Below, piece after piece: positions 2,620 to 53,328 of a stretch of 64,000 nucleotides of DNA. Origin of the DNA: an uncultured Pseudomonadota bacterium. Lineage in GTDB: Bacteria > Babelota > Babeliae > Babelales > CAIQNR01. Within the stretch, counting starts at the first letter, position 1. Each line of letters opens with the position of its first letter. The stretch lies in the NCBI GenBank assembly GCA_964604015.1, contig CAZRXF010000001.1, positions 104,156 through 168,155 on the forward strand, in the 5' to 3' direction. The translations under genes and the position numbers were made by a program. A model generated the notes under the pieces. It worked only from the letters and a program-made list of their open reading frames with translations, was not told where the DNA came from and ran no database searches.

Positions 2620-3102
2620 ATGGACAAAGGGGTAACTGAAAACATGAAAATGAAAAATATTTTTTTGGCCATGTGTCTTGTGAGTGCATCAGAGGCTGTG
2701 TCAAGTGGTGTACAAAAAAGTAAAGCAGTGTGCCAAAAAACACAGAAAGCATTGTTAGAAGTTGCTATTGCGGTACTTAAGAATGGTGATAATGTGCATA
2801 AGCTTCGCGCTTGGAATCGTGTGTGTGAAGAAGCGGGTAAATCTTTCATACTAGTACGTAGGGATCACCATACAGAGGAACAGAGATTTGAAGTGAGGGG
2901 AGTATCTCATGAAAATGCAGGTGCATTTTGCTACAATTTTAATGGAATCCTGGCTGCTTCAGGAAGAGATGGACGTAGATTTGGAGATTTCAAAAAAACT
3001 GCTGAAACGGAACTGAAAGGAATGTTTGGATTACCTCTCAAAAAAGATCTTTGCGTAGAGACTCTTCAGGAGAGGCTTGCTCTGTTGAAAAGAACTAAAT
3101 GA
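2620..3102 (+). CDS. Small secreted hypothetical protein
   Basis: 160-aa ORF with a signal-like MKMKNIFLAMCLVSASEA (alternative starts at 2644 and 2650). Its stop overlaps the next start as ATGA (3099-3102). The C-terminal block AETELKGMFGLPLKKDLCVETLQERL resembles the C-terminus of the next ORF. Confidence 0.55.
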   Translation: MDKGVTENMKMKNIFLAMCLVSASEAVSSGVQKSKAVCQKTQKALLEVAIAVLKNGDNVHKLRAWNRVCEEAGKSFILVRRDHHTEEQRFEVRGVSHENAGAFCYNFNGILAASGRDGRRFGDFKKTAETELKGMFGLPLKKDLCVETLQERLALLKRTK

Positions 3103-9453: not shown

Positions 9454-11076
9454 TTAGAAGGCGCGGGTTGAGGTCAGAAGCTCATTGATCTTTTTTGCAT
9501 GCGTATTGAAAGCATCAACATAACCTTTTGCCTCAGCAAGGGCAGCCTCTTCTGCTGGAGTTAATGGAGCGCCGGTAAATTTCAGTGTCTTATATTCCGT
9601 GAAAACATCCGTGAAAGCAGTCAGGTTTTTATAAAAATCGGCAAGGTACTGCTTATTCTTTTTGATGGCTTGCACATCCTTCTCTCTACTTTGCATTTTA
9701 TCAAGGTATGTTTCGACTTCTTTTTTAACCGGCTTGAGTGAGATAATAAGGGGTTCAAGAACATCAAGATCCGCTTTGTCAGGTGCTGTTTTTGACTTCA
9801 CTTTGTCTGCAATTCTCATGAGTGGTTCTTTGTTGCGAGCGAAGTCCTGGTTCATACCGCTTAAATCTTTTTCTATTTTTTTAAGTTGTTCATGAGGGGA
9901 AAGTTGGACATCGCCAACTTCCTGATCACGCTTTTCTTTGGTGTCTTTTCCTTTGTCGTCAGCTTTACCCGCTCCTGCAGCTCCGCCGGCCTTCGGAGCT
10001 TTTTGTCCATCTTTTTGCGCGGCTTTGAGCTTTTCATTATTTTGTTGGAACTGTTGTTGTGCTGGAGAGGCTCCTGAAGGCATGCCACCAGGGCGATATG
10101 CAGGTTGTTGCATACCACCACTACCATAGCCACCGCGAGATGCTTGCTGTGCTTGAGAGCGCATTTGTGGGTGAGTAACGGGGGATGGTTTTGCAAAATG
10201 CCCGGTGTTGGTGGTGGAGAGTTTCTTGATTTGTTCACCGGCTTTTTTCTGTTGTTCCTCTATCTGTTTTTTGATCTGCAGTGCTTCTTGATCATGTTTT
10301 TTAAACAAGTTTTCGATATCAGTAAGGAGCGTTTCACTGGTAAAGGCATTGCTCATGTAGACTTTAAATTCCTGAAGGAGTGAAGCTGCTTTCTTCAAAT
10401 CTTGGGTACGAGATGCGGCGGTCGTTTTAGCGCTTGGTGTCCGTAGGCCAAGGTGAGGTACAGTTAAATTTGCATCGAATTCTTCAAGCATGGATGACAT
10501 TTTACGCAGCTTCGTTTTCAGTGCCGCAAACTCTTTTTCGGCAAAGTGTTTGAGATGGCGATCGTAATCCAAACGATTAACGTAGGCAGCTAAAAGATCA
10601 AGTTCTTGTTGGATCGGTGCCAGGTGTGGGTGCAACGTTTCATCACTGGCTGCTTTTTGCCTGATGGAAGCAAGAGATTCACCGAGTGATTTGATCATCC
10701 GAGTTAAGGATTCACGCTCTTTCTTGGTTGGTTCATCGATAGAAGGTTTTGCCTTGTCTTGCTTTGGTGCCTCTGGTTGCTTGGTCGGTTGAGGGGCAGG
10801 TAGTGGAGCAGGAGCGGGTGCAGGAAATGTTTTGGCAATTTCATCAAGATCATAGCCACTTTGTTTGAACATCTGCTTGCCCAGTTCTTCGTAGTATTTG
10901 ATTTCTTCGGGGGACATTTTGGCAAGGTCATCCATCAATTTATCAAGCTCTTTTGGGTCCATGCTGTTAAGAAGCTCAAAGGGATCAATTTGAGGAACGT
11001 TTTGAACGGGGCCTTGGGTAAACCCAAAAAGAAGAGGCGCGAAAGTAAAAAAAATCAACGAGAGAAACTTTTTCAT
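9454..11076 (-). CDS. Secreted low-complexity/coiled-coil hypothetical protein
   Basis: 540 aa with the signal peptide MKKFLSLIFFTFAPLLFGFTQG. It contains a PAPAPAPLPAPQP tract, a Gly/Gln/Pro-rich segment (GGYGSGGMQQPAYRPGGMPSGASPAQQQFQQ) and K/E-rich helical regions. No recognised domain. Confidence 0.6.
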   Translation of the reverse strand: MKKFLSLIFFTFAPLLFGFTQGPVQNVPQIDPFELLNSMDPKELDKLMDDLAKMSPEEIKYYEELGKQMFKQSGYDLDEIAKTFPAPAPAPLPAPQPTKQPEAPKQDKAKPSIDEPTKKERESLTRMIKSLGESLASIRQKAASDETLHPHLAPIQQELDLLAAYVNRLDYDRHLKHFAEKEFAALKTKLRKMSSMLEEFDANLTVPHLGLRTPSAKTTAASRTQDLKKAASLLQEFKVYMSNAFTSETLLTDIENLFKKHDQEALQIKKQIEEQQKKAGEQIKKLSTTNTGHFAKPSPVTHPQMRSQAQQASRGGYGSGGMQQPAYRPGGMPSGASPAQQQFQQNNEKLKAAQKDGQKAPKAGGAAGAGKADDKGKDTKEKRDQEVGDVQLSPHEQLKKIEKDLSGMNQDFARNKEPLMRIADKVKSKTAPDKADLDVLEPLIISLKPVKKEVETYLDKMQSREKDVQAIKKNKQYLADFYKNLTAFTDVFTEYKTLKFTGAPLTPAEEAALAEAKGYVDAFNTHAKKINELLTSTRAF

Positions 11077-11262
11077 AACACGGCTCCTAAGAATTTTCTT
11101 TTATTAAAAAGTAAGGAATTAGTTTAAAAGACGGGTTTTTCAAAGTCAAAGTCTTTGCCCGGGCAGGGGTTGTTTTCATGTAGAATACGGAGTACAGTGA
11201 AAATTGTTGTAAAATCGAGTCAAGCTCTAGGCTCCTGGCTCATGTAACCGAGGAAACAGCAT

Positions 11263-11406
11263 ATGAAAACATTCCTTTTTGCAAATGAATGCGATTGTTC
11301 AGACGAATGCTACTGCGACGATGAAGATGACTGCGACGATTGCGATTGTGATTTTGAAGATGATGAAGACGAAGATGAGTGTGATGGGTGCGAGGACTGG
11401 GAGTAA
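11263..11406 (+). CDS. Unannotated small ORF: 47-aa highly acidic, cysteine-rich peptide
   Basis: The ATG at 11263 is preceded by AGGAAA (11251-11256). Translation is MKTFLFANECDCSDECYCDDEDDCDDCDCDFEDDEDEDECDGCEDWE, with stop TAA at 11404-11406. It has nine Cys and more than half Asp/Glu. It is absent from the ORF track because it is under 60 aa. The repetitive GAT/GAC/TGC codon content means a chance ORF cannot be excluded. Confidence 0.4.
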   Translation: MKTFLFANECDCSDECYCDDEDDCDDCDCDFEDDEDEDECDGCEDWE

Positions 11407-12662
11407 CAGCTAAAAGCTTCACATCGTACGTTCTTACTACTGTTTCGGCGGCGTTTTACGCCGCTTCTTTTTTGTCTGAAATTTGTTGGTTTTTTTGTTT
11501 TTTTTCTCTGTCCCCTCTTTTTCTTATCCGTTCTTTGTCGTGGCGCGCTGCTTTTTTTCACGGACTGTTGTGGGGATTTGTCGCCTATACCGCTGTGATC
11601 AGCGCTCTGCTTGACGTGATGTGGCGCTTGGGGAATAGCTCTGATGTTATATGGTACATGGTCGCGTTCGTCGCCTACTTTGCGGTCTTTTCTAGCGTTT
11701 GGTTTTGTATTGCACGTATGGTGGCGCTTCTAACACAGTCATGGCAAGTAGGGTGGTTGGTAAGCTCGTTTGTTTACTGGGCCTGGGTGCAGGTTGGTTT
11801 TTTTTATTTCATCACGGGACGGTTGCAGGGATACGGCCTCGCGCTGCCCTTTGTGCCGGTGATGGAATACCCTGCATTGCTTTCATTCTTACCCATGATC
11901 CGGTGGTGGGGAATGCTTGCAGTGCTGCTTGTGGTTTACCTGGCAGTTGCTCAGAAAAAATGGTGGCTGATAACGCTAGGCATTCTTTTTTTTGCAGGAA
12001 GTTACGGATATGCGATGTGGCACAAGCAGGAAGAAAAGAAGTGTGAGAATATTGCTCTTATTTCAGGAAGGTTTGTATCTGCCATTGCGTATGAACGGGC
12101 CCATGAAGTCTGTGAAAAGTTGCTTGAAGCGGAGCGACAAAATCACCAGGCACAACTGCTTGTGCTGCCAGAATCTGCGTTTCCGCATCCTTTAAATGAG
12201 CATGGGTATGCGCTTGAGATGTGGTCGAACAATGGGAAGTTGCACGAAAAATATCTGGTCGTAGGAACTCATTATGCGTGTGAGCGATGCGGGAGTTTGC
12301 ATAACAGTGCTTGTGTTATTCATGCAGGGCACGTGATCTACCGATACGATAAGCGTTGGATGCTGCCGTTTTTTGAAGAAGAGGTTTTTGCCACCGGGGA
12401 ATCTCCTTTTTTACACGACAAAAAAGAGATGCAGTCTGGGTGTAAGCAAGAATCGATCTTTGCGATTCCTGAAGTAGGACTGGTTAATTTCTGTATCTGT
12501 TCAGAACTTCTCTGGGATATGCCGAAACAAAAAACGGTGATCGCATTGGTCCATGACGGGCATTACCGTTATTCGTACTTTCCTCGCCTTTTTAAACGGT
12601 ATGCGCAGATGCGATCTTTAGAGAAGCAAAGTCAGCTGCTCTACTGTGGGTGGAGGATATAA
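11388..12662 (+). CDS. lnt: Apolipoprotein N-acyltransferase-like protein (short form)
   Basis: It has an N-terminal polytopic membrane region and a C-terminal CN-hydrolase domain with LLVLPESAFP (catalytic Glu context) and FCICSELLW (catalytic Cys context). At 424 aa it is shorter than E. coli Lnt. The GTG start at 11388 is uncertain and overlaps the small acidic ORF by 19 nt. Confidence 0.6.
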   Translation: MRGLGVTAKSFTSYVLTTVSAAFYAASFLSEICWFFCFFSLSPLFLIRSLSWRAAFFHGLLWGFVAYTAVISALLDVMWRLGNSSDVIWYMVAFVAYFAVFSSVWFCIARMVALLTQSWQVGWLVSSFVYWAWVQVGFFYFITGRLQGYGLALPFVPVMEYPALLSFLPMIRWWGMLAVLLVVYLAVAQKKWWLITLGILFFAGSYGYAMWHKQEEKKCENIALISGRFVSAIAYERAHEVCEKLLEAERQNHQAQLLVLPESAFPHPLNEHGYALEMWSNNGKLHEKYLVVGTHYACERCGSLHNSACVIHAGHVIYRYDKRWMLPFFEEEVFATGESPFLHDKKEMQSGCKQESIFAIPEVGLVNFCICSELLWDMPKQKTVIALVHDGHYRYSYFPRLFKRYAQMRSLEKQSQLLYCGWRI

Positions 12663-12663
12663 A

Positions 12664-12690
12664 AAAAGGGACCTTTAAAAGATCCCTTTT
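12664..12690. terminator. Bidirectional terminator hairpin between convergent genes
   Basis: AAAAGGGA (12664-12671) is the perfect complement of TCCCTTTT (12683-12690), with an 11-nt loop. The A/T runs are built into the stem ends. Confidence 0.55.
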
Positions 12691-12711: not shown

Positions 12712-13800
12712 TTATTCTTCTCCACCGCCAGTTCCCATTTCTTCTGCTAGAGCTTTATCAGCGGCTTCCTGAGCAGCAGAGCGAGGTGCGCGCGGTTGTG
12801 GTCGTACCAATGGAGTAACAGCTAAAGCGGGCTCATTTCCACCCGTTTCATTTCTACTTAATGCCGCCACGAAACTATCCCTCTCCGCTTGTGTGAGATG
12901 GTCGGTCTGTAGAAGTTGTTCTATTTCAGTCGTTAATTCCTGGCGATCGCTATTGGGGAGGTATGAGTTTGCAAGGAGTTCTTGTGCCTCTTTAAAAAGG
13001 GTTGCTCGCGAGTCGATGATACAGTTGTTGAATTCAGTGTGTATTCCTCGACGAATTGCCTTAAGAGGTCGTAGTACCATTTTTTTTGCCCAAAATTCTT
13101 GGCTTTTTGTTTCTACATCAATCATCTTTCTTAATTGTGCAATTATTGCATCGATGTCGGCATCTAAAGTTACATCGGTTGCTTTTTCCAGATAATGGGG
13201 AATAGTCGCATCGTATGGCCATGTTCTAATCGATACCGGATTGAGTCGGCCGAGATGGTTCGCGTAGTTGTCAAGAAGCAACTTGAGTCGTTGACGTTCT
13301 TCGCTCGCTCTTGCTGATCCAAGAACGTTTCTTATAGCATCATCTTGTACATCAAAATAGGGGTCAGGAGAGTGAATAGATAGTACATTATTAACATAGG
13401 AGTAAGGATAGCGAATATTTCCGTCTACCATATAAAAGCGAATAAACAGGTCTTGCACCCGCATACCTCGACTTGCAAGTATCGCAAAATAATTTACGAA
13501 TGCTTGTCGTTGTAAGATATATCGGGCTTCATCAATTCCTATGTTCCCTGTCCTTGCAACATTCCTTGCTTCTTCCTCAATTTGTTCTTGATTCCAAAAA
13601 TCACGTGTACCTATATAACCTCTGTCTGTGTCTCCTCCACTGCCTATCATGTCTTCGGGATTTTCGAAAAGACTGTGTTGCGCTCTTTCTCTGGCAGATT
13701 GAAGATTCATCCCAAAAGGAAGATGAATTTCTGCGTGCATTGCGTGCAGAGATCCTGCGCTGGTTATTAAAATTGTAAGTATCAGTAACTGTTTTTTCAT
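12712..13800 (-). CDS. Secreted hypothetical protein
   Basis: 362 aa with the signal peptide MKKQLLILTILITSAGSLHA. It has a C-terminal Pro/Ala-rich acidic tail. No recognised domain. Confidence 0.6.
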   Translation of the reverse strand: MKKQLLILTILITSAGSLHAMHAEIHLPFGMNLQSARERAQHSLFENPEDMIGSGGDTDRGYIGTRDFWNQEQIEEEARNVARTGNIGIDEARYILQRQAFVNYFAILASRGMRVQDLFIRFYMVDGNIRYPYSYVNNVLSIHSPDPYFDVQDDAIRNVLGSARASEERQRLKLLLDNYANHLGRLNPVSIRTWPYDATIPHYLEKATDVTLDADIDAIIAQLRKMIDVETKSQEFWAKKMVLRPLKAIRRGIHTEFNNCIIDSRATLFKEAQELLANSYLPNSDRQELTTEIEQLLQTDHLTQAERDSFVAALSRNETGGNEPALAVTPLVRPQPRAPRSAAQEAADKALAEEMGTGGGEE

Positions 13801-13965: not shown

Positions 13966-14124
13966 ATGAAAAATATGATAAACGTTTTGCTATCTTGGTT
14001 TTCAAGCTTATTTTCAAAGCGTCAGGCTCAAAAAGTGTGTGTTCTTGCATGCAAACTTGAGGAGAGTAAGCAGGAGGCTCAGAAATACGGCAATCAAAAG
14101 GAACTGTCTCGACGTTGGCGTTGA
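13966..14124 (+). CDS. Possible small ORF (52 aa) upstream of rplI
   Basis: The ATG at 13966 is preceded by AGGGGA with a 5-nt spacer. Translation is MKNMINVLLSWFSSLFSKRQAQKVCVLACKLEESKQEAQKYGNQKELSRRWR. It lies in an otherwise ORF-free 460-bp gap. No homology recognised. Confidence 0.25.
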   Translation: MKNMINVLLSWFSSLFSKRQAQKVCVLACKLEESKQEAQKYGNQKELSRRWR

Positions 14125-29220: not shown

Positions 29221-30636
29221 TCAATAGGATCGAGCGACAATACAATCTGTTTTACTTGGTTTTTGGCAGACGCCACAGACAGAACATTGTTTTTCCTGTA
29301 GCAGGCAACGAACAGAGAGCTTATGGTTTTTCAGCTCAGCTTCACAGGAGCGTTCGCCACAGAACCCAGTTTGTATGAAATTCCATTCAGAAGCGGTGAT
29401 AATTGCATCAAGGTTATGCTGTACCACTTTCATGGTTTCAAGTCGTTTTTTTGCGCGTTCAAAAAGTTCTGTTTGAAGGGTGTTGAGTTTTTCAAAAATT
29501 ATACGACCAATTCCTTGCAAAGGTGTGGGGGTTTTTATCGAACTAATGCGGTCGGTCATAATAACTTGGTCTTGTGCCAGATCGCGAGGCCCTATTTCCA
29601 GGCGAAGTGGTACCCCTTTCAATTCCCAATGATAAAATTTATTTCCCGGTGTTTTTTGGTCATCTTCGTCAATATGCACTCGTACTTTGTCGTGGAGTTC
29701 ATCTTTGATTTTTTGAGCAGCTAAAAGTACTTCTTCTCGCTCAGTTTCCGTTTTGTAAATAGGAATGATGACTACTTGGATTGGTGCGATACGGGGAGGA
29801 AGCACGAGCCCTTTGATATCACCGTGACTCATGATAAGTGCACCGACAAGACGGGTTGTGGTTCCCCAGCTGGTGAGCCATGGGTAGGCAAGATCACCCT
29901 CTTTTGTCTGGAACTTCATTTCAAACGCATGCGCAAAACTTTGTGAAAGCAAGTGAGAGGTTCCCATCTGGAGTGCCTTACCGTCCGGCATAAATCCTTC
30001 AAAGGTGTACGTGGTTACAGCACCTGGGAACTTTTCCCCTTCTGACTTTTTACCGGTAATCACGGGAATCGCGAGGTAATTTTCAGCAAGATCTTTGTAG
30101 ATACTGAGCATCATCAGGACTTCATCGAGCGCCTCTTTTTCCGTTGCGTGAGCGGTGTGCCCTTCTTGCCAAAAGAACTCAGATGTTCGTAAAAATGCGC
30201 GTGGTCTCATTTCCCAACGGACCACGTTGGCCCATTGGTTAATCAAAAGAGGCAAATCGCGGTAGGAACGTATCCATTGAGCAAACATGTGATGAATAAT
30301 CGTCTCTGATGTTGGACGTACGACCAATGGTTCGGCAAGTTGCTTTCCCCCTGCGTGGGTTACTACCGCAAGCTCAGGTGCAAAGCCTTCAACGTGCTCA
30401 GCTTCTTTTTTCAGGAATGATTCAGGAATTAAAAGCGGGAACATCGCATTTTTATGCCCCGTGTCTTTAATTTTTTTATCAAGAACTCCCTTTATCGTCT
30501 CCCAAATCTCACACCCATAGGGGCGGATTACCATGCATCCTCGTACGGGGGCATTATCAGCCAATTCTGCTTGGTGAATTACCTCTTGATACCATTCGGC
30601 AAGGTTTGTTTTTGGATCTGGGAGTCTGTTGCTCAT
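29221..30636 (-). CDS. proS: Proline--tRNA ligase, archaeal/eukaryotic-like type
   Basis: 471 aa. The N-terminus is LAEWYQEVIHQAELADNAPVRGCMVIRPYGCEIWE. It has class II motifs (RPTSETIIHHMF, FLRTSEFFWQEGHTAH), no bacterial-type INS editing insertion, and a C-terminal Cys-rich domain ending in ...ARSY. Confidence 0.9.
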   Translation of the reverse strand: MSNRLPDPKTNLAEWYQEVIHQAELADNAPVRGCMVIRPYGCEIWETIKGVLDKKIKDTGHKNAMFPLLIPESFLKKEAEHVEGFAPELAVVTHAGGKQLAEPLVVRPTSETIIHHMFAQWIRSYRDLPLLINQWANVVRWEMRPRAFLRTSEFFWQEGHTAHATEKEALDEVLMMLSIYKDLAENYLAIPVITGKKSEGEKFPGAVTTYTFEGFMPDGKALQMGTSHLLSQSFAHAFEMKFQTKEGDLAYPWLTSWGTTTRLVGALIMSHGDIKGLVLPPRIAPIQVVIIPIYKTETEREEVLLAAQKIKDELHDKVRVHIDEDDQKTPGNKFYHWELKGVPLRLEIGPRDLAQDQVIMTDRISSIKTPTPLQGIGRIIFEKLNTLQTELFERAKKRLETMKVVQHNLDAIITASEWNFIQTGFCGERSCEAELKNHKLSVRCLLQEKQCSVCGVCQKPSKTDCIVARSY

Positions 30637-38926: not shown

Positions 38927-40486
38927 TTATCGAGCGTATTCAATCGAACGTTTTTCTCGGATAACGTTAACTTTAATTTGTCCGGGGAAAGACATTTCGT
39001 CTTCAATGCGTTTTGCAATGTCACGCGCCAAGATTCCTGCTTTTTCATCGTCAAGAAGGTCCTCCTCAACAATGACGCGGACTTCCCTACCTGCTTGCAA
39101 CGCATAGGCTTTTTTAACTCCGCCAAAGCTATTTGCAATGTCTTCGAGTTTTTCAAGCCGTTTGATGTATGCAGTGAGTGTTTCTCTACGTGCACCAGGA
39201 CGTGATGCTGAGATGGTATCGGCAATCACTACAATCGGGGCATAAATAGAAAGGAAGGGAACTTCTTCATGGTGAGCCGCAATTGCGTTTACCACAAGAG
39301 GGCTTTCTCCACAGCGTTTTGCAATATCGCCACCGATGATAGCATGCGGTCCTTCAACCTCTGCAGTTACGGCTTTTCCAATATCATGTAAAAGACCAGC
39401 GCGCATTGCTATTTCACCGTTTAGACCGAGTTCTTCTGCAATCATACGGGCAAACATACCGACTTCTTTACTGTGATCGAGGACATTTTGAGAGAATGAT
39501 GTTCTAAAATAGAGCTTACCCAGCAAGGTTACGATTTCAGGGTGAATGCCTTGGATATTGCATTCAAGGATTGCCTGCTTTCCGTATTCTTCAATTGCTT
39601 CTTCGATTTCTTTTTCGTAGTAAGCAACCGTTTCTTCAATACGTGTTGGATTGATACGACCATCAAGAATCAATTTTTCAAGGGTACGGCGCGCTATTTC
39701 TCGTCGTATCGGGTTAAAGCCAGAAATGGTAATTACTTCCGGTGTTTCACCAATAACAAATTCCATCCCCGTTGCCATTTCAAGCGACTTGATGTTGCGC
39801 CCTTCTTTTCCAATGATGCGCCCTTTCATTTCTTCCTTTGGAAGGTGCACTACACTGGATGCGTTCGGCGTTACTTGATCGATGGTGTAGCGCTGCATGG
39901 CGCTTACGACGATTTGTATAGATTTTTCTTTTGCCGTTTGACGTGTTTCTTCTTCAACCTTTTGGATCCATTTTTGATTAGAAAGATTCACTTCAGCGTA
40001 TAAGATATCGGCAAGTTCTTTCTTTGCTTGGTCTTTGCTCAAGCCACCGATATTTTCCAGCTTGGTGATCAGCTCTGTGTAGAGTGATTTGAGCTTTTCC
40101 TCATTTGAGTGCATAAGCTCGCTCATTCGATTGAGCTTGCGCTCTTTCTCCTGGAGTTCTCGCTTGAGATCATCAAGTTGCTCTTCTTTTTTATCGAGCG
40201 TGTCTTCTTTGGATTGGATCTTTGATTGTTGGCGATCGAGTTCAATGCGATCACGCTTAATCTCAGCTTCAAACTCAGTGCGTCGTTTATAAATCTCGTC
40301 TTTGACTTTTAAAAGCGCTTCTTTTCGTTCCGTTTCTATTTCTCGTTTTGCACTTCTGTGCTTTTCTTCGACGGAAGCCAGCAACGCATTCGCATCCGCC
40401 AATTTTTTCTTGGCGTACATGAGCATTACCAGGGCTAGTGCAATCCCCACAAGCCCAAGAAGAACTTCACCTATTCCTAATAACAT
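38927..40486 (-). CDS. rny: Ribonuclease Y
   Basis: 519 aa. It has an N-terminal TM anchor (LLGLVGIALALVMLMY), a long coiled coil, a KH domain (GRIIGKEGRNIKSLE) and an HD domain (GLLHDIGKA). Confidence 0.92.
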   Translation of the reverse strand: MLLGIGEVLLGLVGIALALVMLMYAKKKLADANALLASVEEKHRSAKREIETERKEALLKVKDEIYKRRTEFEAEIKRDRIELDRQQSKIQSKEDTLDKKEEQLDDLKRELQEKERKLNRMSELMHSNEEKLKSLYTELITKLENIGGLSKDQAKKELADILYAEVNLSNQKWIQKVEEETRQTAKEKSIQIVVSAMQRYTIDQVTPNASSVVHLPKEEMKGRIIGKEGRNIKSLEMATGMEFVIGETPEVITISGFNPIRREIARRTLEKLILDGRINPTRIEETVAYYEKEIEEAIEEYGKQAILECNIQGIHPEIVTLLGKLYFRTSFSQNVLDHSKEVGMFARMIAEELGLNGEIAMRAGLLHDIGKAVTAEVEGPHAIIGGDIAKRCGESPLVVNAIAAHHEEVPFLSIYAPIVVIADTISASRPGARRETLTAYIKRLEKLEDIANSFGGVKKAYALQAGREVRVIVEEDLLDDEKAGILARDIAKRIEDEMSFPGQIKVNVIREKRSIEYAR

Positions 40487-47218: not shown

Positions 47219-48781
47219 TTACAAAAATCCTACTCCACCATAAGAGGAGGTAAAGGTAGTCGGGGTGAAAGGATTGATATAACGAAGAGTGAGAAAGTCT
47301 CCTGCTGTAGGAGCTCCTCCAAATCCGGCGTCTATGTTAGTTTGTCCTACAACTACAATGTCCCCGCTTGGTGTGAGTGCGACTGCATGTCCAGCATCGC
47401 TCAGAGGTGGTCTTGAGATGTGAGTGATAGTGTATCCAGTTCCATTTGGTCCATATGAGGAATCAAGTCTTCCTTCTGATGTGTAGCGCAAAATAAGGAT
47501 AGAACTTCCCACTCCACCAACACCCCAGATATTTGTAGAGCCGGCTACTACAATGGAATTATCAAGTTGGAGCGTTACGCTGTAGGCACCATCAACGTAC
47601 CCTATTCCGGATATATTCGTTGTTACAATGCCATTTTGTCCAAATGCATGATCAATGGTGCCGTCTGAATTGTAACGTACCAAGCCAACATAACCAATAA
47701 CGGGTCCTCCCCCCTGATCAATATTGACTACCCCTGCTGCTATGATTTTTCCATCAGGTTGTAATACTCCAGCAAAAGCTTCATCTATGTAACCAACAAC
47801 ATTGGGTGAAATGTGTGTTGTAACGATTCCTGTTTGACTTGGTCCAAAAGTCTTATCAAGATGGCCGTCTTGAGAAAAGCGCATAATCAGAAACGAACCA
47901 ATAGCTATTCCTCTTGCTGTTACATTAGTTCCACCGATAGCAATAATTTTACCATCAGGTTGGAGAAGAAGTGCTTGAATGGAGTCAACTTGTCCTACCC
48001 CTGAGATATTTATGGAAAAAGTGCCATCCCCATTGGGACCAAAATTGTTGTCTGGTGTACCATCTGAATTATATCGAATTAAGGTAGCATCGCCTGTTCC
48101 CAAACCTCCCTGATAGATGTTTGTGAAACCACCAACTAAAATCTTCCCATCAGGCTGAATAACGACACTTGTTGCTCCGTCAATGCGTCCAGAAAAATTT
48201 TTGGTGACTATTCCATTTTTGCTTGGTCCAAATGAAGTATCAAAAGAACCATCAGAGTTGTAACGTACTACACCAAAATATCCAATGTTAGGAGCGGCAT
48301 CGTAAATGTTGGTTGATCCTACAACCACGATTTTCCCATTGGACTGTATTGCTACACCATTGGCACCATCAATGTAACCGGCGCCACTAAGGCTTGTTGT
48401 AACATAGCCAAGGTTATTACCAAAAGAATGATCAAGAGTGCCGTCAGTGTTGTATCGCAGTGTAGCAAAAAGTCCGGTAGGTGGAGGGCCACCAGCACCG
48501 TTAATATTCAGTTCTCCTACTGTTACAATTTTCCCATCTGATTGTAGTGCTAATGCATAGCAACCATCCGCCTTGCCAGAGATATTGAGTGTTGCATACC
48601 CAATGCCATTAAATGTGTGGTCAAGAAGACCTGCAAGGTTAATCGCTTGTACATAACTTGCAAAAACCGCAGGCGGAGTCTCTGGGGTGATTCTAACCAT
48701 AGCACTGAGGCGTAAGAAGCTTATTGTTAACAGAATGACCAATGAAAAAATGGAAGTTAGTGTGTTTTTTTTCTTTTTCAC
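47219..48781 (-). CDS. Secreted delta-60-type repeat (beta-propeller) protein, copy 2
   Basis: The GTG start at 48781 is preceded by GAGGA with a 6-nt spacer. The signal/anchor is KKKKNTLTSIFSLVILLTISFL. At least six ~55-60-aa repeats carry the core (L/V)RYN(S/T)DG(S/T)xDxxFG...DGKI(V/I)(V/A)(V/G)G. Confidence 0.75.
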   Translation of the reverse strand: MKKKKNTLTSIFSLVILLTISFLRLSAMVRITPETPPAVFASYVQAINLAGLLDHTFNGIGYATLNISGKADGCYALALQSDGKIVTVGELNINGAGGPPPTGLFATLRYNTDGTLDHSFGNNLGYVTTSLSGAGYIDGANGVAIQSNGKIVVVGSTNIYDAAPNIGYFGVVRYNSDGSFDTSFGPSKNGIVTKNFSGRIDGATSVVIQPDGKILVGGFTNIYQGGLGTGDATLIRYNSDGTPDNNFGPNGDGTFSINISGVGQVDSIQALLLQPDGKIIAIGGTNVTARGIAIGSFLIMRFSQDGHLDKTFGPSQTGIVTTHISPNVVGYIDEAFAGVLQPDGKIIAAGVVNIDQGGGPVIGYVGLVRYNSDGTIDHAFGQNGIVTTNISGIGYVDGAYSVTLQLDNSIVVAGSTNIWGVGGVGSSILILRYTSEGRLDSSYGPNGTGYTITHISRPPLSDAGHAVALTPSGDIVVVGQTNIDAGFGGAPTAGDFLTLRYINPFTPTTFTSSYGGVGFL

Positions 48782-48794
48782 GAGGAATCCTCTT

Positions 48795-50354
48795 TTATAA
48801 GAACCCTACTCCACCATAAGAGGAGGTAAAGGTAGCCGGGGTGAAAGGATTGATGTAACGAAGCGTGGTAAAGTCCCCTTCTGCAGGAGCGCCCCCTGCT
48901 CCTGCTCCTACGTTCGTTTGCCCAGCAACTAGAATGCTGCCATTTGCGGCAAGAGTAACACCATAACCGGCATCATAAAGAGGGGGATTTGAAATTTGCG
49001 TGGTAACATACCCAATTCCTTGTGGGCCAAATGAAGGATCAAGAGTCCCCTCTGGGGTATAGCGCAAAACAAGAATTGATCCAGGAGCTCCAGCAGTTCC
49101 TCTTTCATTTGTGGCACCTGCGACGACGATAAAGGCATCTAATTGAAGAACTGCTGCATTTGCATAATCAAGGTAACCGTTACCAGAAATATTTGTCGTT
49201 ACAATTCCACCCTGCCCAAACGAGGCGTCGAGAGTGCCATTCGAAGTATAGCGCACCAAACATACATCTCCGATTGGTATTCCTGTGCCTTGGGTGTTGG
49301 TTGATCCTACTGCCACAATTTTTCCATCGGGTTGGAGGACCCCTGAAGCTGCGCCATCAGCATATCCAACGGTGTTTGATGAGATGTGTGTCTGTACAAT
49401 GCCTGTTTTGTCTGGTCCGAATGTTGAGTCAAGAATGCCTTCTTGAGTAAGCCTCATGACAAGAAAGGAACCAGTTCCTCCTGCCCCTGATATATTAGTT
49501 GCTCCGATGGCAATAATTTTTCTGTCAGGTTGTAAGAGAACGCTGTTTGCAATATCGGTCTTATTGTTACCCGAAATGCTTACAGAGAAAGCTCCATTAC
49601 CGTCAGGTCCAAAACTATCATCTTCCGAGCCATCTGCATTGTATCGAAGAAGTGCAGCCTTTCCTTGTCCGCCTACTAGTGCAAAGGCAAGAATGTTTGT
49701 AAATCCTCCAAGTAAAATTTTACCGTCAGGTTGAATGACAACACTGGTCGCTCCATCTACATTACCTGAGAGGTTCCTTGTGACCGTTCCGTTCTGAGCA
49801 GGTCCAAAGGTGGCGTCAGGGGATCCGTCGGGATTATACCGTACGATGGCAAATGATCCTACGGGGGGAAAACCGTTAAGTCCACGATTTGTTTGTCCTG
49901 CGACAACAAGTTTGCCATCTGATTGGATAGCAATAGCAGTGGCAAAATCGGCAGTACCAGGTCCACTAAAACTTGTTGTAACGTATCCAAGTCCATTTCC
50001 AAATGAGGGATCTAGAGAACCATCAGTGTTGTAGCGGGCGGTGAGGAAGACGCCTGTTCTTCCTCCTCCAATATTGAGATTTGTTCCTCCAACAACGACT
50101 ACTTTGCCATCAGATTGAACTGCGATCCCGTGTGCCCTATCAGCAAATCTATCAATGTTCAGGGTTGCATACCCAATACCATGAAAGGTGTGGTCAAGAA
50201 GGCCTGTAAGATTGATTGCTTGGACGTAACTTGCAAAGACTGCAGGTTGAGTTTCTGGGGTTATCCTAACCATAGCGTTGAGGTGTGAGAACTTTATTGT
50301 TAGCACAATGGCTAGGGAAAAAATAAGGACAAATACATGCTTTTTCTTGTTCAC
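48795..50354 (-). CDS. Secreted delta-60-type repeat (beta-propeller) protein, copy 1
   Basis: I moved the start to the GTG at 50354, preceded by AAAGGAGA with a 7-nt spacer. This gives NKKKHVFVLIFSLAIVLTIKF, parallel to the paralog. The repeat core is the same. The N-terminal ~45 aa after the signal and the last 20 aa are nearly identical to copy 2. Confidence 0.75.
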   Translation of the reverse strand: MNKKKHVFVLIFSLAIVLTIKFSHLNAMVRITPETQPAVFASYVQAINLTGLLDHTFHGIGYATLNIDRFADRAHGIAVQSDGKVVVVGGTNLNIGGGRTGVFLTARYNTDGSLDPSFGNGLGYVTTSFSGPGTADFATAIAIQSDGKLVVAGQTNRGLNGFPPVGSFAIVRYNPDGSPDATFGPAQNGTVTRNLSGNVDGATSVVIQPDGKILLGGFTNILAFALVGGQGKAALLRYNADGSEDDSFGPDGNGAFSVSISGNNKTDIANSVLLQPDRKIIAIGATNISGAGGTGSFLVMRLTQEGILDSTFGPDKTGIVQTHISSNTVGYADGAASGVLQPDGKIVAVGSTNTQGTGIPIGDVCLVRYTSNGTLDASFGQGGIVTTNISGNGYLDYANAAVLQLDAFIVVAGATNERGTAGAPGSILVLRYTPEGTLDPSFGPQGIGYVTTQISNPPLYDAGYGVTLAANGSILVAGQTNVGAGAGGAPAEGDFTTLRYINPFTPATFTSSYGGVGFL

Positions 50355-50418
50355 TAGAAGGTCTCCTTTTAAAGACAAACAGTTTCAACCGTAGTAAAAA
50401 GAGCTGGTATTTTTCAAT

Positions 50419-51238: not shown

Positions 51239-52603
51239 ATGCAAAAAGATGTCCGTAGCCTAGCAAATAGCGCTGAGCCGGGTAAACAGACTGAAGAATA
51301 TTTTTTTAAAAATTATAAGGAAAAGTTCTTTCGGGCGGTGAAATGGAACGTCGTTGAATCGATTGGCTATCAAGTAATTTTTATGCTTCATCAGTGTGGA
51401 CTTTTTTGGTATTGCGATCGAAGTTTGTATGGGAAAATAGGAGCACTTCTTGCTGCCTGTTACTTGGGGGTAACCGTTCTTGTGGCAGGATTTGATGGAG
51501 GACTTCTTCCTTTTTTTGAACGGTTTACTGCAACAAAACAGGATTTTAAAAAATTTATTTTTGGCAAACTTGTGCCACACCTGTGCCTTATGGTCGGGAC
51601 CGTTGGTCTGATCGGCATCATTTTTTTTATAAGCGGTCGAACTTTTTTTTCTTTTTCAGGATGGTCACTCTTTCTTGTGGGGCTGTTTGTTCTGGTTGAA
51701 GCAACCAAGAAAATTTTGAAGCAATTGTTGTATCTTGGTTTTCATAATAAACAGACTGCCCTTTTTGAGGTCCTTCAGATCGGACTCTACTCAGGAACCG
51801 TATGGGGTTGTTACATGGCGGGCATTCCGTTTTCGATACCACTTTTTATGATTCCATTTATTGTGTGGTCAACCGTGTTTTGTTTTTTATGTGTGTGTAT
51901 CTTAAAAGTTTATTATCGGACACTTCCTTTTGCGCATACGACCTCTCTTCCTCTTATCTCTTTGTCATTTATATTTCTTAGAGGCGCTGTCCTTATTAAT
52001 CAGTTAAGTCGGGCATTTTTTTCCAGCAATTTCCTAGTTCCCCTTTTTGCAATTCATGGTGGGTTTAGAGAAGCAGGTGTTTTAACCTTCGCAAATTATC
52101 TGACACATGCTTGCACCTTTTTCATTCAAAAGATAACTCTTCCTCCTGCAGAGGCATTATTTAGCAGAATAAAAAAACTTTCACTTGTTGCTCATCATAA
52201 AGCTTTTTCATTAGTCCTTACCCTTTTTTCATCACTTACACTTGTGTTCGGATTTTTATTTTTTTTCAAGGGACGCTCATTAGCAACTTCGTTCGGATAT
52301 AGCGTACTGGACCATGTTACCTGGAAGCTTCTTATTTTCTTTTTCTTTATTCACCTGCTTGAAAGTATCTTCATGTTGTATGAAAAATTCTTTCTTTTGC
52401 AAGAGCAGATCATGTTTCTTGCTCTTGGTAACGTAATCACATGCGTCATTTGCTATCTTCTTTTCCTCCTGAAGTTACCATTTTTTGTTCTTGTTTTTAC
52501 CTGCATTTTTATGAGATTTTCCTTCTTTATCTTCCTCTCGCTCCGCATCTACTCTTCAAAATTGGCATCTGGAGCCTCTTTTCAAGGGCGGTTGCAACGA
52601 TAG
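51239..52603 (+). CDS. Polytopic membrane protein, MOP-flippase-like (Wzx/MurJ-type), copy 1
   Basis: 454 aa with about 12-14 hydrophobic segments. It aligns by eye with the ORF at 53329 (e.g. SRAFFSSNFLVPLFAIHGG...LPPAEALFSRI against SLSERNFLFPFITSIQGQ...TIGIADTALLSYV). The family call is tentative. Confidence 0.45.
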   Translation: MQKDVRSLANSAEPGKQTEEYFFKNYKEKFFRAVKWNVVESIGYQVIFMLHQCGLFWYCDRSLYGKIGALLAACYLGVTVLVAGFDGGLLPFFERFTATKQDFKKFIFGKLVPHLCLMVGTVGLIGIIFFISGRTFFSFSGWSLFLVGLFVLVEATKKILKQLLYLGFHNKQTALFEVLQIGLYSGTVWGCYMAGIPFSIPLFMIPFIVWSTVFCFLCVCILKVYYRTLPFAHTTSLPLISLSFIFLRGAVLINQLSRAFFSSNFLVPLFAIHGGFREAGVLTFANYLTHACTFFIQKITLPPAEALFSRIKKLSLVAHHKAFSLVLTLFSSLTLVFGFLFFFKGRSLATSFGYSVLDHVTWKLLIFFFFIHLLESIFMLYEKFFLLQEQIMFLALGNVITCVICYLLFLLKLPFFVLVFTCIFMRFSFFIFLSLRIYSSKLASGASFQGRLQR

Positions 52604-52917
52604 CAAATAAACAGCTTTCTTGATACAGGTAACCCATTTAATTGTCGCGGCAAAAAACTTTTGTCATTTTTGATTTTTTCAAAATACGCCCACTAGGAGC
52701 TTGTTTTGGACGATATAAAAAACAGGTATCGACTTCTTTTTCTAATAGGGTTTTTTTGTAAAACTACAACATGAAATTCTGCTGGTTGCTGGAAAATGTT
52801 TGGAATGATGCAGGAAATTAGTTATCGGACGCTTGCTTTCTTGATGTGTAAGGTTTACAAGATGTGCACTGACCGTTATGATGGTTTCCTTGGTTTGGTT
52901 TAAAATAAAGGAGCAGT

Positions 52918-53295
52918 ATGAAAAAATGTCAGGGATTATTATTCGTTATAACTTTGTTACCTTCTTCTTTGTGTGCTTCAAATACTTCTCCATCATCTCC
53001 TTCTTCAAAATCTGTTAATGCTGCACCCGCTGCATTTCCCGTCTGTACGCAGGCTTTCAGGAAAATCTATGACGGAACGTTATCAGTTACTGACGTACAA
53101 CAACAATCATGGTTTACCTCGTATGATCTTCTTTACAAAGAATATAACGGTGTTCAAACATCAGACTCCAACGTGCTTTCGCTACTTTCACAATTAAAGA
53201 AGGAAGCCATTACACCAGAAGCTGCAACTACATCATTTACAGCTCTCCAACAAACATTGATCAATCAAACGAACACACTACTTTCTAAGCAATAA
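52918..53295 (+). CDS. Small secreted hypothetical protein
   Basis: 125 aa with the signal peptide MKKCQGLLFVITLLPSSLCA, followed by a Ser/Pro-rich linker. An RBS (AAGGAG) lies upstream. Confidence 0.55.
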   Translation: MKKCQGLLFVITLLPSSLCASNTSPSSPSSKSVNAAPAAFPVCTQAFRKIYDGTLSVTDVQQQSWFTSYDLLYKEYNGVQTSDSNVLSLLSQLKKEAITPEAATTSFTALQQTLINQTNTLLSKQ

Positions 53296-53328
53296 CGTGA
53301 TTCACAGAGGGTTTTCAAGGGGGCTGTC

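Follow-up and report, generated by a model that had tools for sequence, protein, structure and literature searches.

Metallothioneins are proteins of less than 10 kDa with a high content of cysteines in CxC and CxxC arrangements, normally non-acidic and poor in aromatic residues; nine cysteines is the ligand count of an M3Cys9 cluster. Hpn and Hpn-like of Helicobacter pylori are tiny proteins of the cytoplasm, extreme in composition, with a presumed role in metal buffering. Internal partial terminators set expression ratios within operons, examples being the rplKAJL-rpoBC attenuator and the T1 terminator of rpsU-dnaG-rpoD. Lnt works via a cysteine thioester and on cysteine-bearing N-termini (compare the title of PDB entry 6nwr). 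Phytochelatins are non-ribosomal peptides of the form (gamma-Glu-Cys)n-Gly; Cd, Zn and Cu are chelated by thiol peptides of this polyanionic type (PMC9917255, PMC4292183). Acidic runs within about the first 30 residues of an ORF destabilise ribosomes and abort translation in E. coli, an effect that bulky N-terminal residues are reported to counteract (bioRxiv 10.1101/2021.02.02.429294). To which of these systems, if any, is an acidic nine-cysteine peptide encoded directly upstream of an Lnt homologue best compared?

The window that we analysed is a stretch of 64,000 nucleotides from an uncultured bacterium. The locus comprises the following elements:

11170 to 11198, plus strand: predicted sigma-70-type promoter, with -35 TTGTTT (11170-11175), a 17-nt spacer and -10 TACAGT (11193-11198); from the alignment of relatives.
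11250 to 11254, plus strand: Shine-Dalgarno-like GAGGA, 8 nt before the ATG; read directly from the sequence.
11263 to 11406 including the stop codon, plus strand: gene for an acidic nine-cysteine protein of 47 aa; from the ORF list and conservation in about 15 lineages.
11388 to 12662, plus strand: divergent Lnt homologue, 424 aa from the GTG at 11388; from TIGR00546, AF2/Foldseek and invariant residues.
11447 to 11475, plus strand: intrinsic-terminator-like element at about codons 21-30 of the Lnt-like gene; from a terminator scan and conservation.
12664 to 12690, no strand assigned: 12-bp palindromic hairpin with flanking runs of A and T; from the terminator scan.

The small ORF runs from its ATG at 11263 to a TAA at 11404-11406, and its translation, taken from the sequence and the ORF list, is MKTFLFANECDCSDECYCDDEDDCDDCDCDFEDDEDEDECDGCEDWE. 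The 5.5-kDa product has nine cysteines (19%) and 25 acidic residues (16 Asp and 9 Glu, 53%), a calculated charge of about -24.5 at pH 7, and 3 Phe, 1 Tyr and 1 Trp as its aromatics. The cysteines stand in CxC, CxxxC and CxxC spacings, in the layout C-x-C-x3-C-x-C ... C-x2-C-x-C ... C-x2-C. The first of them is residue 10, preceded by just 3-4 hydrophobic residues, and six-residue windows with at least four Asp, Glu or Pro begin at residue 17. In a six-frame scan of the window this was the sole stretch to combine 5 or more Cys with 12 or more Asp/Glu in 40 residues. These data bear out the initial annotation, which had reported a highly acidic ORF of 47 codons with nine cysteines, a well-spaced AGGAAA before the ATG and a 19-nt overlap with the GTG start of an lnt-like gene.

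Is this a gene, or merely an open frame of unusual composition? We regard it as more than chance because it is conserved in relatives, and not on composition alone. In about 15 distinct lineages the corresponding Lnt-like gene is immediately preceded by this small ORF. Nucleotide differences among relatives fall mostly on third codon positions (4/2/28 in one example), dN/dS is 0.05-0.2, and every indel that accounts for differences in length is in frame; the test of frame conservation proposed in the initial annotation thus came out in favour of the gene. Where identity between the Lnt-like partners has fallen to 42-46%, that between the peptides is still 64-78%, so that a tiny peptide is better conserved than the enzyme gene to which it is attached. 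A frame on the antisense strand, in which wobble positions coincide, displays 77% identity in the codon-position test, slightly above the sense frame. This is a consequence of the genetic code, since GAN read backwards gives Ser TCN. The antisense frames have stops at variable places, and which of them is open differs between relatives. TGN codons in the family are only TGY, or TGG in 6 cases, and never TGA, while all four bases are used in GAN. Stop positions together with TGN and GAN usage settle the question of strand. Comparative sequence evidence thus identifies 11263-11406 as a bona fide protein-coding gene under purifying selection. The claim that the ORF is unannotated and would be missed by standard annotation was mistaken, as it is called in most ENA, Logan and JGI contigs. 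In one JGI contig a spurious antisense call of 106 aa crosses the acidic region, and annotation pipelines disagree by up to 90 codons on where the Lnt-like gene starts. With its discordant starts and this antisense call, the locus is a hazard for annotation.

On the available alignments, the peptides form a family of previously undescribed small proteins, 45-54 aa in length, that is confined to one clade of uncultured bacteria. MKT, four cysteines and one Asp are invariant throughout, and the N-terminus is bulky and hydrophobic (MKT-F/W-L/I-F/L). All nine cysteines are invariant in the main clade, where the acidic linkers vary in length and Asp and Glu interchange freely; as judged from this alignment, the pattern of CxC, CxxxC and CxxC is what selection preserves. 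Members of the L015/L050/L055 clade keep the acidity with only 5-6 cysteines; Tyr, Trp, His or Asp stands in place of the 3-4 lost ones. Over the family as a whole, the thiols vary more than the acidity does.

Every member of this Lnt-like subfamily that we examined has the small ORF upstream; it is absent at L069, an outlier whose Lnt-like protein is 25% identical. The initial annotation had asked whether lnt orthologs elsewhere carry the ORF and had suggested that the two genes are coupled; within the subfamily they do carry it, and the two are physically linked in every relative examined. Outside Lnt-like loci the peptide was not found among 5.8 billion protein clusters, 1.84 billion representatives and scans of metagenome and viral DNA. 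The single-sequence search of the 5.8 billion clusters gave no match and is uninformative, as the exact peptide is absent from that collection. Phmmer against the 1.84 billion representatives returned one true member, P0035; a second match, P0034, is a eukaryote-like repeat protein that shares only CDDEEDC and was rejected as chance. A profile of 13 members returned four proteins (P0035, P0036, P0037 and P0038), all of the family. The contigs of P0035 and P0036 agree in size with those of Lnt-like loci, and P0038, which stems from an NCBI source, is the peptide of L071. Of 18 matches in a DNA-pattern scan of metagenomes, five are true and all five adjoin an Lnt-like gene; the other 13 are chance, ten of them the signal peptide of one 533-aa protein. 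The same kind of scan of viral contigs gave 0 matches. Nothing was found for the peptide in Pfam or NCBIfam (E <= 0.01 / 0.1) or by sequence search of the PDB (E <= 10), and Rfam gave no hit at the gathering threshold or at E <= 1. AF2 produced no usable fold (pLDDT 48), and our literature search found no description of such a peptide or of a small ORF linked to Lnt. The catalogue of small proteins thereby gains a well-supported new family of 45-54 residues, about 50% Asp/Glu, with up to nine fixed cysteines. The source samples are freshwater and groundwater, and genomes of the family carry eukaryote-like ankyrin/RING genes.

The downstream protein matches TIGR00546 (lnt) at E 7.5e-17 and 61.6 bits, below the cutoff of 132.9. 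E. coli Lnt has about 510 aa, as compared with 424 aa here. An AF2 model (pLDDT 82.8) has E. coli Lnt structures as its top Foldseek matches (TM about 0.7, 15% identity), and it matches the E. coli and P. aeruginosa proteins over about 450 columns with TM 0.64-0.73. The model thus gives the protein the Lnt fold, with a polytopic membrane domain and a nitrilase-like domain. A profile of the protein against the PDB returned no Lnt at E <= 0.01. E262 (LPESAF), K322 (YDK) and C371 (CSE) are invariant in 17 homologues; we take these, by motif resemblance only, to be the equivalents of the E. coli Lnt triad E267/K335/C387. The GTG start straddles the last cysteine codon of the small gene (GGG TGC read as GTG), and in all loci the Lnt-like start overlaps or abuts the peptide stop, in one relative frame. 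The neighbours of the small gene are ileS, a gene for a secreted protein of 540 aa, the Lnt-like gene, rplI and dnaB, and the arrangement ileS ... rplI-dnaB is generally conserved among relatives. No metal-related gene was found among the neighbours scanned against Pfam or NCBIfam. The genome also encodes RNase Y, a ProRS with a ProRS-C_1 C-terminal domain, and an ankyrin-RING gene, a set that may speak against the label Pseudomonadota.

How might the pair be expressed? Across 10 aligned upstream regions the -35 TTG and the -10 TAnAnT are invariant and their spacing is constant, while the surroundings are only 37% identical. We infer that 11170-11198 acts as a promoter, with a predicted 5' UTR of about 57 nt. 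AGGA, GGGGA or AAGGA lies 6-9 nt ahead of the ATG in all relatives. Further downstream, the hairpin GGCGGCG-UUU-UACGCCGCU at 11447-11465 is followed by UCUUUUUUGU; its energy is -13.4 kcal/mol (z -4.7), and it falls in codons for the first transmembrane helix of the Lnt-like protein. Across relatives, hairpin and U tract lie within the Lnt-like coding region, 36-53 nt past the peptide stop. A stretch of 26 nt is identical in 8/8 aligned loci, and a ninth, L071, has the same hairpin and T tract. Invariant codons make up 8/10 of the hairpin segment versus 8/72 elsewhere in the gene (p = 1.3e-5), and the pairing survives A->V and F->L changes in L068 and L070. The L050/L055 clade has a hairpin of different, non-homologous sequence at the equivalent place, so that a terminator-like hairpin stands downstream of the small ORF in all four clades. 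The alignments indicate that it is conserved at the nucleotide level, beyond coding constraint. Hairpins with T tracts of the same kind are found at gene ends in this genome, and transcription would be terminated at 11447-11475. The hairpin at 12664-12690, which separates the convergent Lnt-like gene and a gene of 362 aa, is likely the end of the two-gene unit. The initial annotation had overlooked both promoter and downstream hairpin, which probably change the way in which the gene pair is expressed.

Our preferred reading, to which we give an even chance of being correct, is that the peptide is a metal binder like metallothionein or phytochelatin and is made in excess over the Lnt homologue. 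Chelation of metal is plausible from the sequence. The product would reside in the cytoplasm as an intrinsically disordered polyanion, with conserved thiolates that fold around soft metal ions; its nine cysteines would suit a cluster of the M(II)3Cys9 type or a number of Cu(I) ions. Set in a matrix of Asp and Glu, it would thus be an analogue, made by ribosomes, of metallothionein or phytochelatin, and its bulky N-terminus may help the ribosome to pass the acidic run. As judged from gene order in the relatives, the small gene is always the first in a two-gene unit with a divergent Lnt homologue. It would be transcribed from the conserved promoter and translated from its own Shine-Dalgarno sequence. 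Most transcripts would stop at the hairpin and U tract, and for this reason the peptide would be made in excess. Transcripts that read through would yield the Lnt-like protein at a low level, from a GTG, ATG or TTG start that lacks a Shine-Dalgarno sequence, lies on or next to the last codons of the peptide and may be served by terminating ribosomes (translational coupling). The invariance of nine cysteines in the main clade, where linker length and Asp/Glu drift, supports this reading, as does the lack of a predicted fold, which is also seen with apo-metallothioneins; its expression part agrees with the conservation of promoter, Shine-Dalgarno sequence, stop/start overlap and hairpin. Several observations argue the other way. 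The Phe, Tyr and Trp residues and the acidity are at odds with what is normal for metallothioneins, and the L015/L050/L055 clade is acidic with its reduced set of cysteines. A terminator within the downstream ORF would produce non-stop messages if ribosomes reinitiate on terminated transcripts. A general role in metal buffering leaves the strict linkage to the Lnt-like gene unexplained, and the scanned neighbours are not metal-related. The obligate pairing with a very divergent Lnt homologue and the embedded hairpin nevertheless amount to an uncommon arrangement for expression, open to direct test.

Could the peptide instead act chiefly in cis? The main rival explanation, which we consider unlikely, is a leader peptide that controls read-through into the Lnt-like gene by attenuation. 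The acidic, Cys-rich run would stall or abort translation, through Mg2+-sensitive destabilisation of the ribosome or limiting Cys- or Asp-tRNA, and formation of the downstream hairpin, with termination of transcription, would depend on whether a ribosome completes the ORF and reinitiates at the Lnt-like gene. The arrangement fits: a short ORF, conserved with its promoter and Shine-Dalgarno sequence on the same predicted transcript, a stop/start overlap, and a terminator-like hairpin 36-53 nt downstream in all four clades. Acidic windows begin at residue 17, inside the first 30 or so; no feature of the family is more universal than acidity, and MgtL-type leaders offer precedents (PMC8092293). 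However, folds of 11380-11480 and 11200-11480 contain no antiterminator or other competing pairing, the minimum-energy structure of the entire leader retains the hairpin, and the sequence between peptide stop and hairpin is not conserved. A ribosome at the peptide stop would remain more than 25 nt short of the hairpin. A sensor based on acidity needs neither nine exact cysteine positions nor MKT, and the conserved bulky N-terminus should suppress abortion and not promote it. Finally, the codons of the ORF do not match the function of the regulated gene, as an Lnt homologue is unconnected with Cys, Asp, Glu or Mg2+.

Peptide and divergent Lnt might also constitute one undescribed system, a proposal that we rate as improbable. 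Either translation of the thiol-rich ORF, with its destabilising effect on ribosomes, would sense a cation or metal state and thereby gate read-through of the embedded terminator into lnt, or the peptide would be a dedicated partner or acyl acceptor of the enzyme. If either form were true, the modification of lipoproteins (of the envelope) would be tied to metal or redox state in an uncultured, host-associated lineage. Taken separately, a dedicated partner of the Lnt-like enzyme, be it a subunit or regulator at the cytoplasmic face or an acceptor acylated at a cysteine or the N-terminus to give a new lipopeptide, is quite doubtful. It would account for the obligate co-occurrence and coupling at every subfamily locus and the lack of occurrences elsewhere in the databases searched; the unusual divergence of the Lnt homologue is in keeping with it, and Lnt chemistry fits a peptide that bears cysteines. 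Yet the peptide has no signal peptide or lipobox: residues -3 to -1 of the first cysteine are A-N-E, E-Q-S or N-K-D, as compared with the lipobox [LVI][ASTVI][GAS]C. By homology the catalytic domain of Lnt is periplasmic, whereas the peptide should be cytoplasmic, and a terminator between the genes predicts unequal amounts, unlike a 1:1 subunit. Adjacency is in itself weak evidence, as regional gene order is generally conserved.

A RiPP precursor with cysteines modified by a maturase is very improbable. The peptide is small and Cys-rich, and RiPP-lipoprotein hybrids that use the lipoprotein pathway have recently been described (bioRxiv 10.1101/2025.10.31.685832), but the conserved neighbourhood has no gene for a radical-SAM, DUF692, cyclodehydratase or protease/exporter protein, no Pfam or NCBIfam precursor family matched (neither SCIFF/ranthipeptide-like nor DAG-RiPP), and the peptide displays no leader/core organisation; the earlier suggestion of a maturation substrate thus finds no support in maturase genes, lipobox or RiPP families. 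The last alternative, that no gene exists and the region is a low-complexity GAY/TGY stretch in the lnt leader, open by chance, or encodes an opposite-strand product, can point to the low-complexity composition, the largely open antisense frames with their 106-aa call and the antisense identity, and is already refuted in practice by the conserved start codon, Shine-Dalgarno sequence, promoter and stop position, the in-frame indels, the restriction of cysteine codons to TGY, the inconstant antisense frames with their code-derived identity, and the absence of any tandem DNA repeat from the ORF.

How, then, does the locus compare with described systems? It would share with rplKAJL-rpoBC and rpsU-dnaG-rpoD a strongly expressed small first gene, a hairpin with U tract and a downstream gene needed in small amounts; unlike in those operons, the element lies within the downstream coding sequence and is combined with a stop/start overlap. 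Like MgtL-type attenuator leaders, it has a short Asp/Glu-rich ORF before the gene of a membrane protein and a terminator-like hairpin downstream (bioRxiv 10.1101/2021.02.02.429294). Here, however, the ORF is much longer and more conserved, with fixed cysteine positions and no antiterminator found, and the hairpin is inside the downstream ORF and not in the leader. Hpn resembles the peptide in its very small size and extreme composition, but it is His-rich, binds Ni, has no sequence similarity to the peptide and stands in another genomic context.

The resemblance to metallothioneins (SmtA/BmtA, MymT and the 9-Cys beta-domain of animals) lies in a mass of 5-6 kDa, about 19% Cys in CxC, CxxC and CxxxC (nine in 47 aa), cysteine positions that are conserved while the rest drifts, and no predicted fold without metal. 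The peptide differs from them in having no sequence relationship (no match in Pfam or NCBIfam), 53% Asp/Glu instead of Lys/Ser/Gly, more aromatics (Phe, Tyr and Trp), a conserved hydrophobic N-terminus and an obligate link to an Lnt homologue; its metal binding, moreover, is one that we infer. With phytochelatins and synthetic (Glu-Cys)n peptides it shares the alternation of acidic residues and cysteines. Phytochelatins carry gamma-Glu linkages and are made by an enzyme, and the EC peptides are engineered synthetic products, whereas this is a natural ribosomal alpha-peptide with an irregular but conserved cysteine pattern, encoded by an ORF with a Shine-Dalgarno sequence, a start codon and selection at the codon level. 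If it does bind metal, it would be a natural, ribosomally encoded equivalent of phytochelatin-like peptides known until now only from engineering.

Is a reading frame this short and this skewed in composition a gene? As the initial annotation described, sequence and ORF list give an ATG-initiated ORF at 11263-11406 on the forward strand that encodes MKTFLFANECDCSDECYCDDEDDCDDCDCDFEDDEDEDECDGCEDWE. The peptide has a mass of 5.5 kDa, its net charge is calculated at about -24.5, and its residues include 9 Cys, 16 Asp and 9 Glu. The ORF also overlaps the following, Lnt-like ORF by 19 nt, the latter starting at GTG 11388. GAGGA, a Shine-Dalgarno (SD)-like sequence, is located 8 nt 5' of the ATG. 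A scan of every frame found no comparable density of Cys and Asp/Glu elsewhere in the window, and no DNA tandem repeat was found across the small-ORF region. Exact look-up of the downstream protein returned 7 metagenome contigs, with the 47-aa ORF called wherever the contig extends that far.

Homologues of the Lnt-like protein were gathered and their surrounding DNA was then retrieved. A small ORF lies at the equivalent place in every checkable locus of this Lnt-like subfamily. The loci are listed with the identity of their Lnt-like partner to that of the window.

L007: partner 79% identical; small ORF MKTFFFANECDCSDECYCDD...
L008: partner 70% identical; small ORF present
L011: partner 46% identical; small ORF MKTFLFEQMCDCSDDCHCDEDDDDCEDCDCDLDDEDEDECDGCEDWE
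L009: partner 45% identical; small ORF MKTFLFEQSCECSDECLCDDEEDDDCDDCDCGLDDDEDEEDDDDCDGCDE
L068, L070: partner 42-44% identical; small ORF with 9 Cys, arranged differently towards the C-terminus
L012, L013: partner 42% identical; small ORF present
L014, L071: partner 31-37% identical; small ORF with 8 Cys
L015 / L050 / L059 and L055: partner 35% identical; small ORF of 52-54 aa with 5-6 Cys

At the loci of proteins P0004 and P0007, gene calls alone place ORFs of 69 aa and 46 aa there, respectively. The outlier L069, with a 25% identical Lnt-like protein, carries neither the small ORF nor the hairpin described below; a zf-MYND protein is encoded close by. At L011 an antisense 106-aa ORF had been called over the acidic region in place of the peptide.

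Substitutions fall where a coding sequence tolerates them. Differences at codon positions 1/2/3 number 4/2/28 between window and L011 and 3/4/24 between window and L009, and the third position dominates among relatives generally; dN/dS is 0.05-0.21 for those pairs with unsaturated synonymous sites. The initial annotation had singled out frame-breaking indels as the sign of a non-coding repeat; the frame is kept, and length differences among relatives are whole codons in all cases. Peptide identity is 64-78% in relatives whose Lnt-like partners are 42-46% identical. Identity is higher still in the antisense frame that shares its wobble positions with the sense frame, as follows from the genetic code (GAN reversed reads as Ser TCN); this frame and the other antisense frames contain stops, placed differently from relative to relative. 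Sense Cys codons are TGC (49) and TGT (42), never TGA, and Asp/Glu codons occur with every base at the third position. We are nearly certain that the small ORF is a real gene; the opposite reading is effectively excluded.

Across 13 distinct members M1, K2, T3, C10, C16, C27, C29 and D33 are invariant, and residues 4-6 are bulky throughout (F/W/M, L/F/I, F/L). The main clade has nine fixed cysteines, C-x-C-x3-C-x-C-(acidic 5-7)-C-x2-C-x-C-(acidic 10-13)-C-x2-C, joined by acidic linkers that vary in length and interchange Asp and Glu; in one clade several of the Cys have given way to Tyr, Trp, His or Asp, with acidity still above 60%. The peptide matched nothing in Pfam, NCBIfam or the PDB sequences. 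A first single-peptide database search was empty and is uninformative, the exact peptide being absent from that collection. Exhaustive phmmer against 1.84 billion representatives yielded one true relative; searched with a profile, 5.8 billion clusters yielded four family members, three tied to Lnt-like loci (the fourth is protein P0037). In a degenerate DNA-pattern scan of metagenomes true matches adjoined the Lnt-like gene only, and the same scan of viral contigs gave no small-ORF match. These outcomes indicate a small peptide family confined to one clade, with no other context seen.

Freshwater-lake and groundwater metagenomes supplied the contigs, and the organism is uncultured. Other genes of the window are as follows.

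9454-11076, reverse strand: 540-aa protein, divergent from the pair; no Pfam or NCBIfam match
12712-13800, reverse strand: 362-aa ORF flanked by the Lnt-like gene on one side and the 52-aa ORF on the other; no family match
13966-14124, forward strand: second conserved small ORF, 51-52 aa, called, just 5' of rplI (also L007:3827-3985, L068:4385-4540, L070:4386-4541)
20310-21425, reverse strand: ankyrin-repeat protein with C-terminal RING finger, a eukaryote-like domain combination
29221-30636, reverse strand: ProRS with ProRS-C_1 C-terminal domain
38927-40486, reverse strand: RNase Y
47219-50378 (reverse), 51239-54693 (forward) and 57525-63998 (reverse): group with two adjacent DUF5122 beta-propeller ORFs, two equal-length ORFs (454 aa each, no Pfam match) and a giant ORF (>2157 aa) running off the window end

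The 540-aa protein, with a hydrophobic N-terminal stretch resembling a signal peptide and a Pro/Ala/Gln-rich low-complexity middle, is encoded beside the pair in all loci reaching that far upstream. The 362-aa ORF occurs in the window and near-identical contigs and is missing from L007, so that it looks like a lineage-specific insertion. The ORF by rplI is hydrophobic in its N-terminal half and ends in a conserved basic C-terminus (...GNQKELSRRWR / ...GNKQEIKRYWR). About 990 C-terminal residues of the giant ORF (57525-60500) were scanned without a Pfam match. Pairing of ankyrin repeats with RING is typical of host-associated bacteria and thus suggests such a lifestyle; RNase Y and the ProRS-C_1 ProRS are, in our judgement, a poor fit to the 'uncultured Pseudomonadota' label of related MAGs.

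The downstream gene is a divergent, shortened Lnt homologue. At 61.6 bits its product falls short of the curated lnt threshold of 132.9 bits, and its profile found no Lnt among PDB sequences. The confident AF2 model (pLDDT 82.8) superimposes full-length on E. coli and P. aeruginosa Lnt (TM ~0.7, identity 15%), and Glu262, Lys322 and Cys371 are invariant in homologues. Public start calls disagree: 334 aa for the NCBI copy, 366 aa for a relative from JGI, and 424 aa otherwise. With the short calls up to ~90 N-terminal residues are lost, among them the conserved SAAFYAASFL segment. Protein conservation of the first helix, also in the clade without the GC hairpin, supports the long form.

How is the pair expressed? 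Upstream regions of 10 loci have a mean identity of 37%, yet TTG and TAnAnT are kept with a fixed 17-nt spacing.

11170-11175 and 11193-11198, forward strand: predicted small-gene promoter, -35 TTGTTT and -10 TACAGT, from the alignment of 10 loci
11149-11121, reverse strand: promoter-like site of the divergent 540-aa gene, a second conserved block back to back with the peptide promoter
11447-11475, forward strand: terminator-like hairpin GGCGGCG-UUU-UACGCCGCU then UCUUUUUUGU, from the terminator scan

The Lnt-like start lies on or beside the small-ORF end in all loci, in constant relative frame. It is ATG, GTG or TTG drawn from the last Cys codon (GGA TGC, GGG TGC, GAT TGC); in L011 it is TTG within GAT TGG, the Cys codon being TGT. 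Stop and start form TAATG in the L015 clade, and 16-17 nt separate them in L068 and L070. With a predicted promoter and SD of its own, the small gene is conserved, translated-looking and coupled to a divergent lnt.

A conserved hairpin with a U tract separates the small gene from the main part of lnt; in the window it lies ~41 nt 3' of the peptide stop, in the codons for SAAFYAASFL. A stretch of 26 nt is identical across eight aligned loci, and L071 has the same hairpin and T tract. Where an invariant amino acid has degenerate codons, the codon itself is invariant in 8/10 cases within the hairpin segment, four Ala included, and in 8/72 over the remainder of the gene (Fisher p = 1.3e-5). Changes of A to V and F to L in L068 and L070 (hairpin around 3027-3053) retain pairing via G.U. 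In the L050/L055 clade the hairpin that lies 53 nt past the stop is unrelated in sequence, reading AUGGCCAAC...GUUGGCCAU and followed by a U-rich tail (L050:719-751). Energies across loci are -10.7 to -14.2 kcal/mol (z -3 to -4.8). As judged from these alignments, the hairpin is maintained by nucleotide-level (synonymous-site) selection within the Lnt-like 5' coding region; position and shape are kept and sequence is not, a pattern that points to a function of the RNA and speaks against a DNA site bound by protein. Hairpins of like type stand at real gene ends of the same genome (9407-9429 and 12664-12690), and the region has no Rfam match.

With about even confidence, and from sequence, we favour a composite reading in which a disordered thiolate metal ligand is combined with a partial terminator, giving abundant peptide and scarce membrane enzyme. 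The peptide (AF2 pLDDT 48) would be a disordered, polyanionic ligand for soft metals, with selection acting on Cys pattern and charge, not fold. Nine Cys in CxC/CxxC spacing are the ligand set of the M3Cys9 metallothionein cluster. Transcripts reading through the hairpin would feed the SD-less lnt start with terminating ribosomes. Asp/Glu-rich runs in the first ~30 residues are reported to destabilise ribosomes, an effect offset by bulky preceding residues (bioRxiv 10.1101/2021.02.02.429294); the bulky conserved N-terminus may serve this offsetting, which would mean that the cell requires the complete peptide.

A cis-acting leader peptide or attenuator, which the ORF-terminator layout and early acidic run would suit, is unlikely: an antiterminator was sought and none found, a ribosome at the peptide stop codon would not reach the hairpin, and the fixed Cys positions are left unexplained. 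It is distinctly improbable that the peptide serves the Lnt homologue as dedicated partner or substrate, since it has neither signal peptide nor lipobox and unequal stoichiometry is predicted, although strict linkage to the Lnt-like gene would be accounted for. A RiPP precursor is highly improbable in a neighbourhood without a maturase.

What is new is the combination of an Asp/Glu-matrix Cys9 protein family without described relatives, its obligate tie to a very divergent Lnt, and a terminator-like hairpin under synonymous-site selection in lnt's first transmembrane-helix codons. Taken singly, each belongs to a known kind: Cys-rich mini-proteins that bind metal, pairs of coupled genes, and terminators internal to a transcription unit. 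In its alternation of acidic residues and Cys the peptide is reminiscent of phytochelatins and of synthetic (Glu-Cys)n chelators (PMC9917255, PMC4292183).
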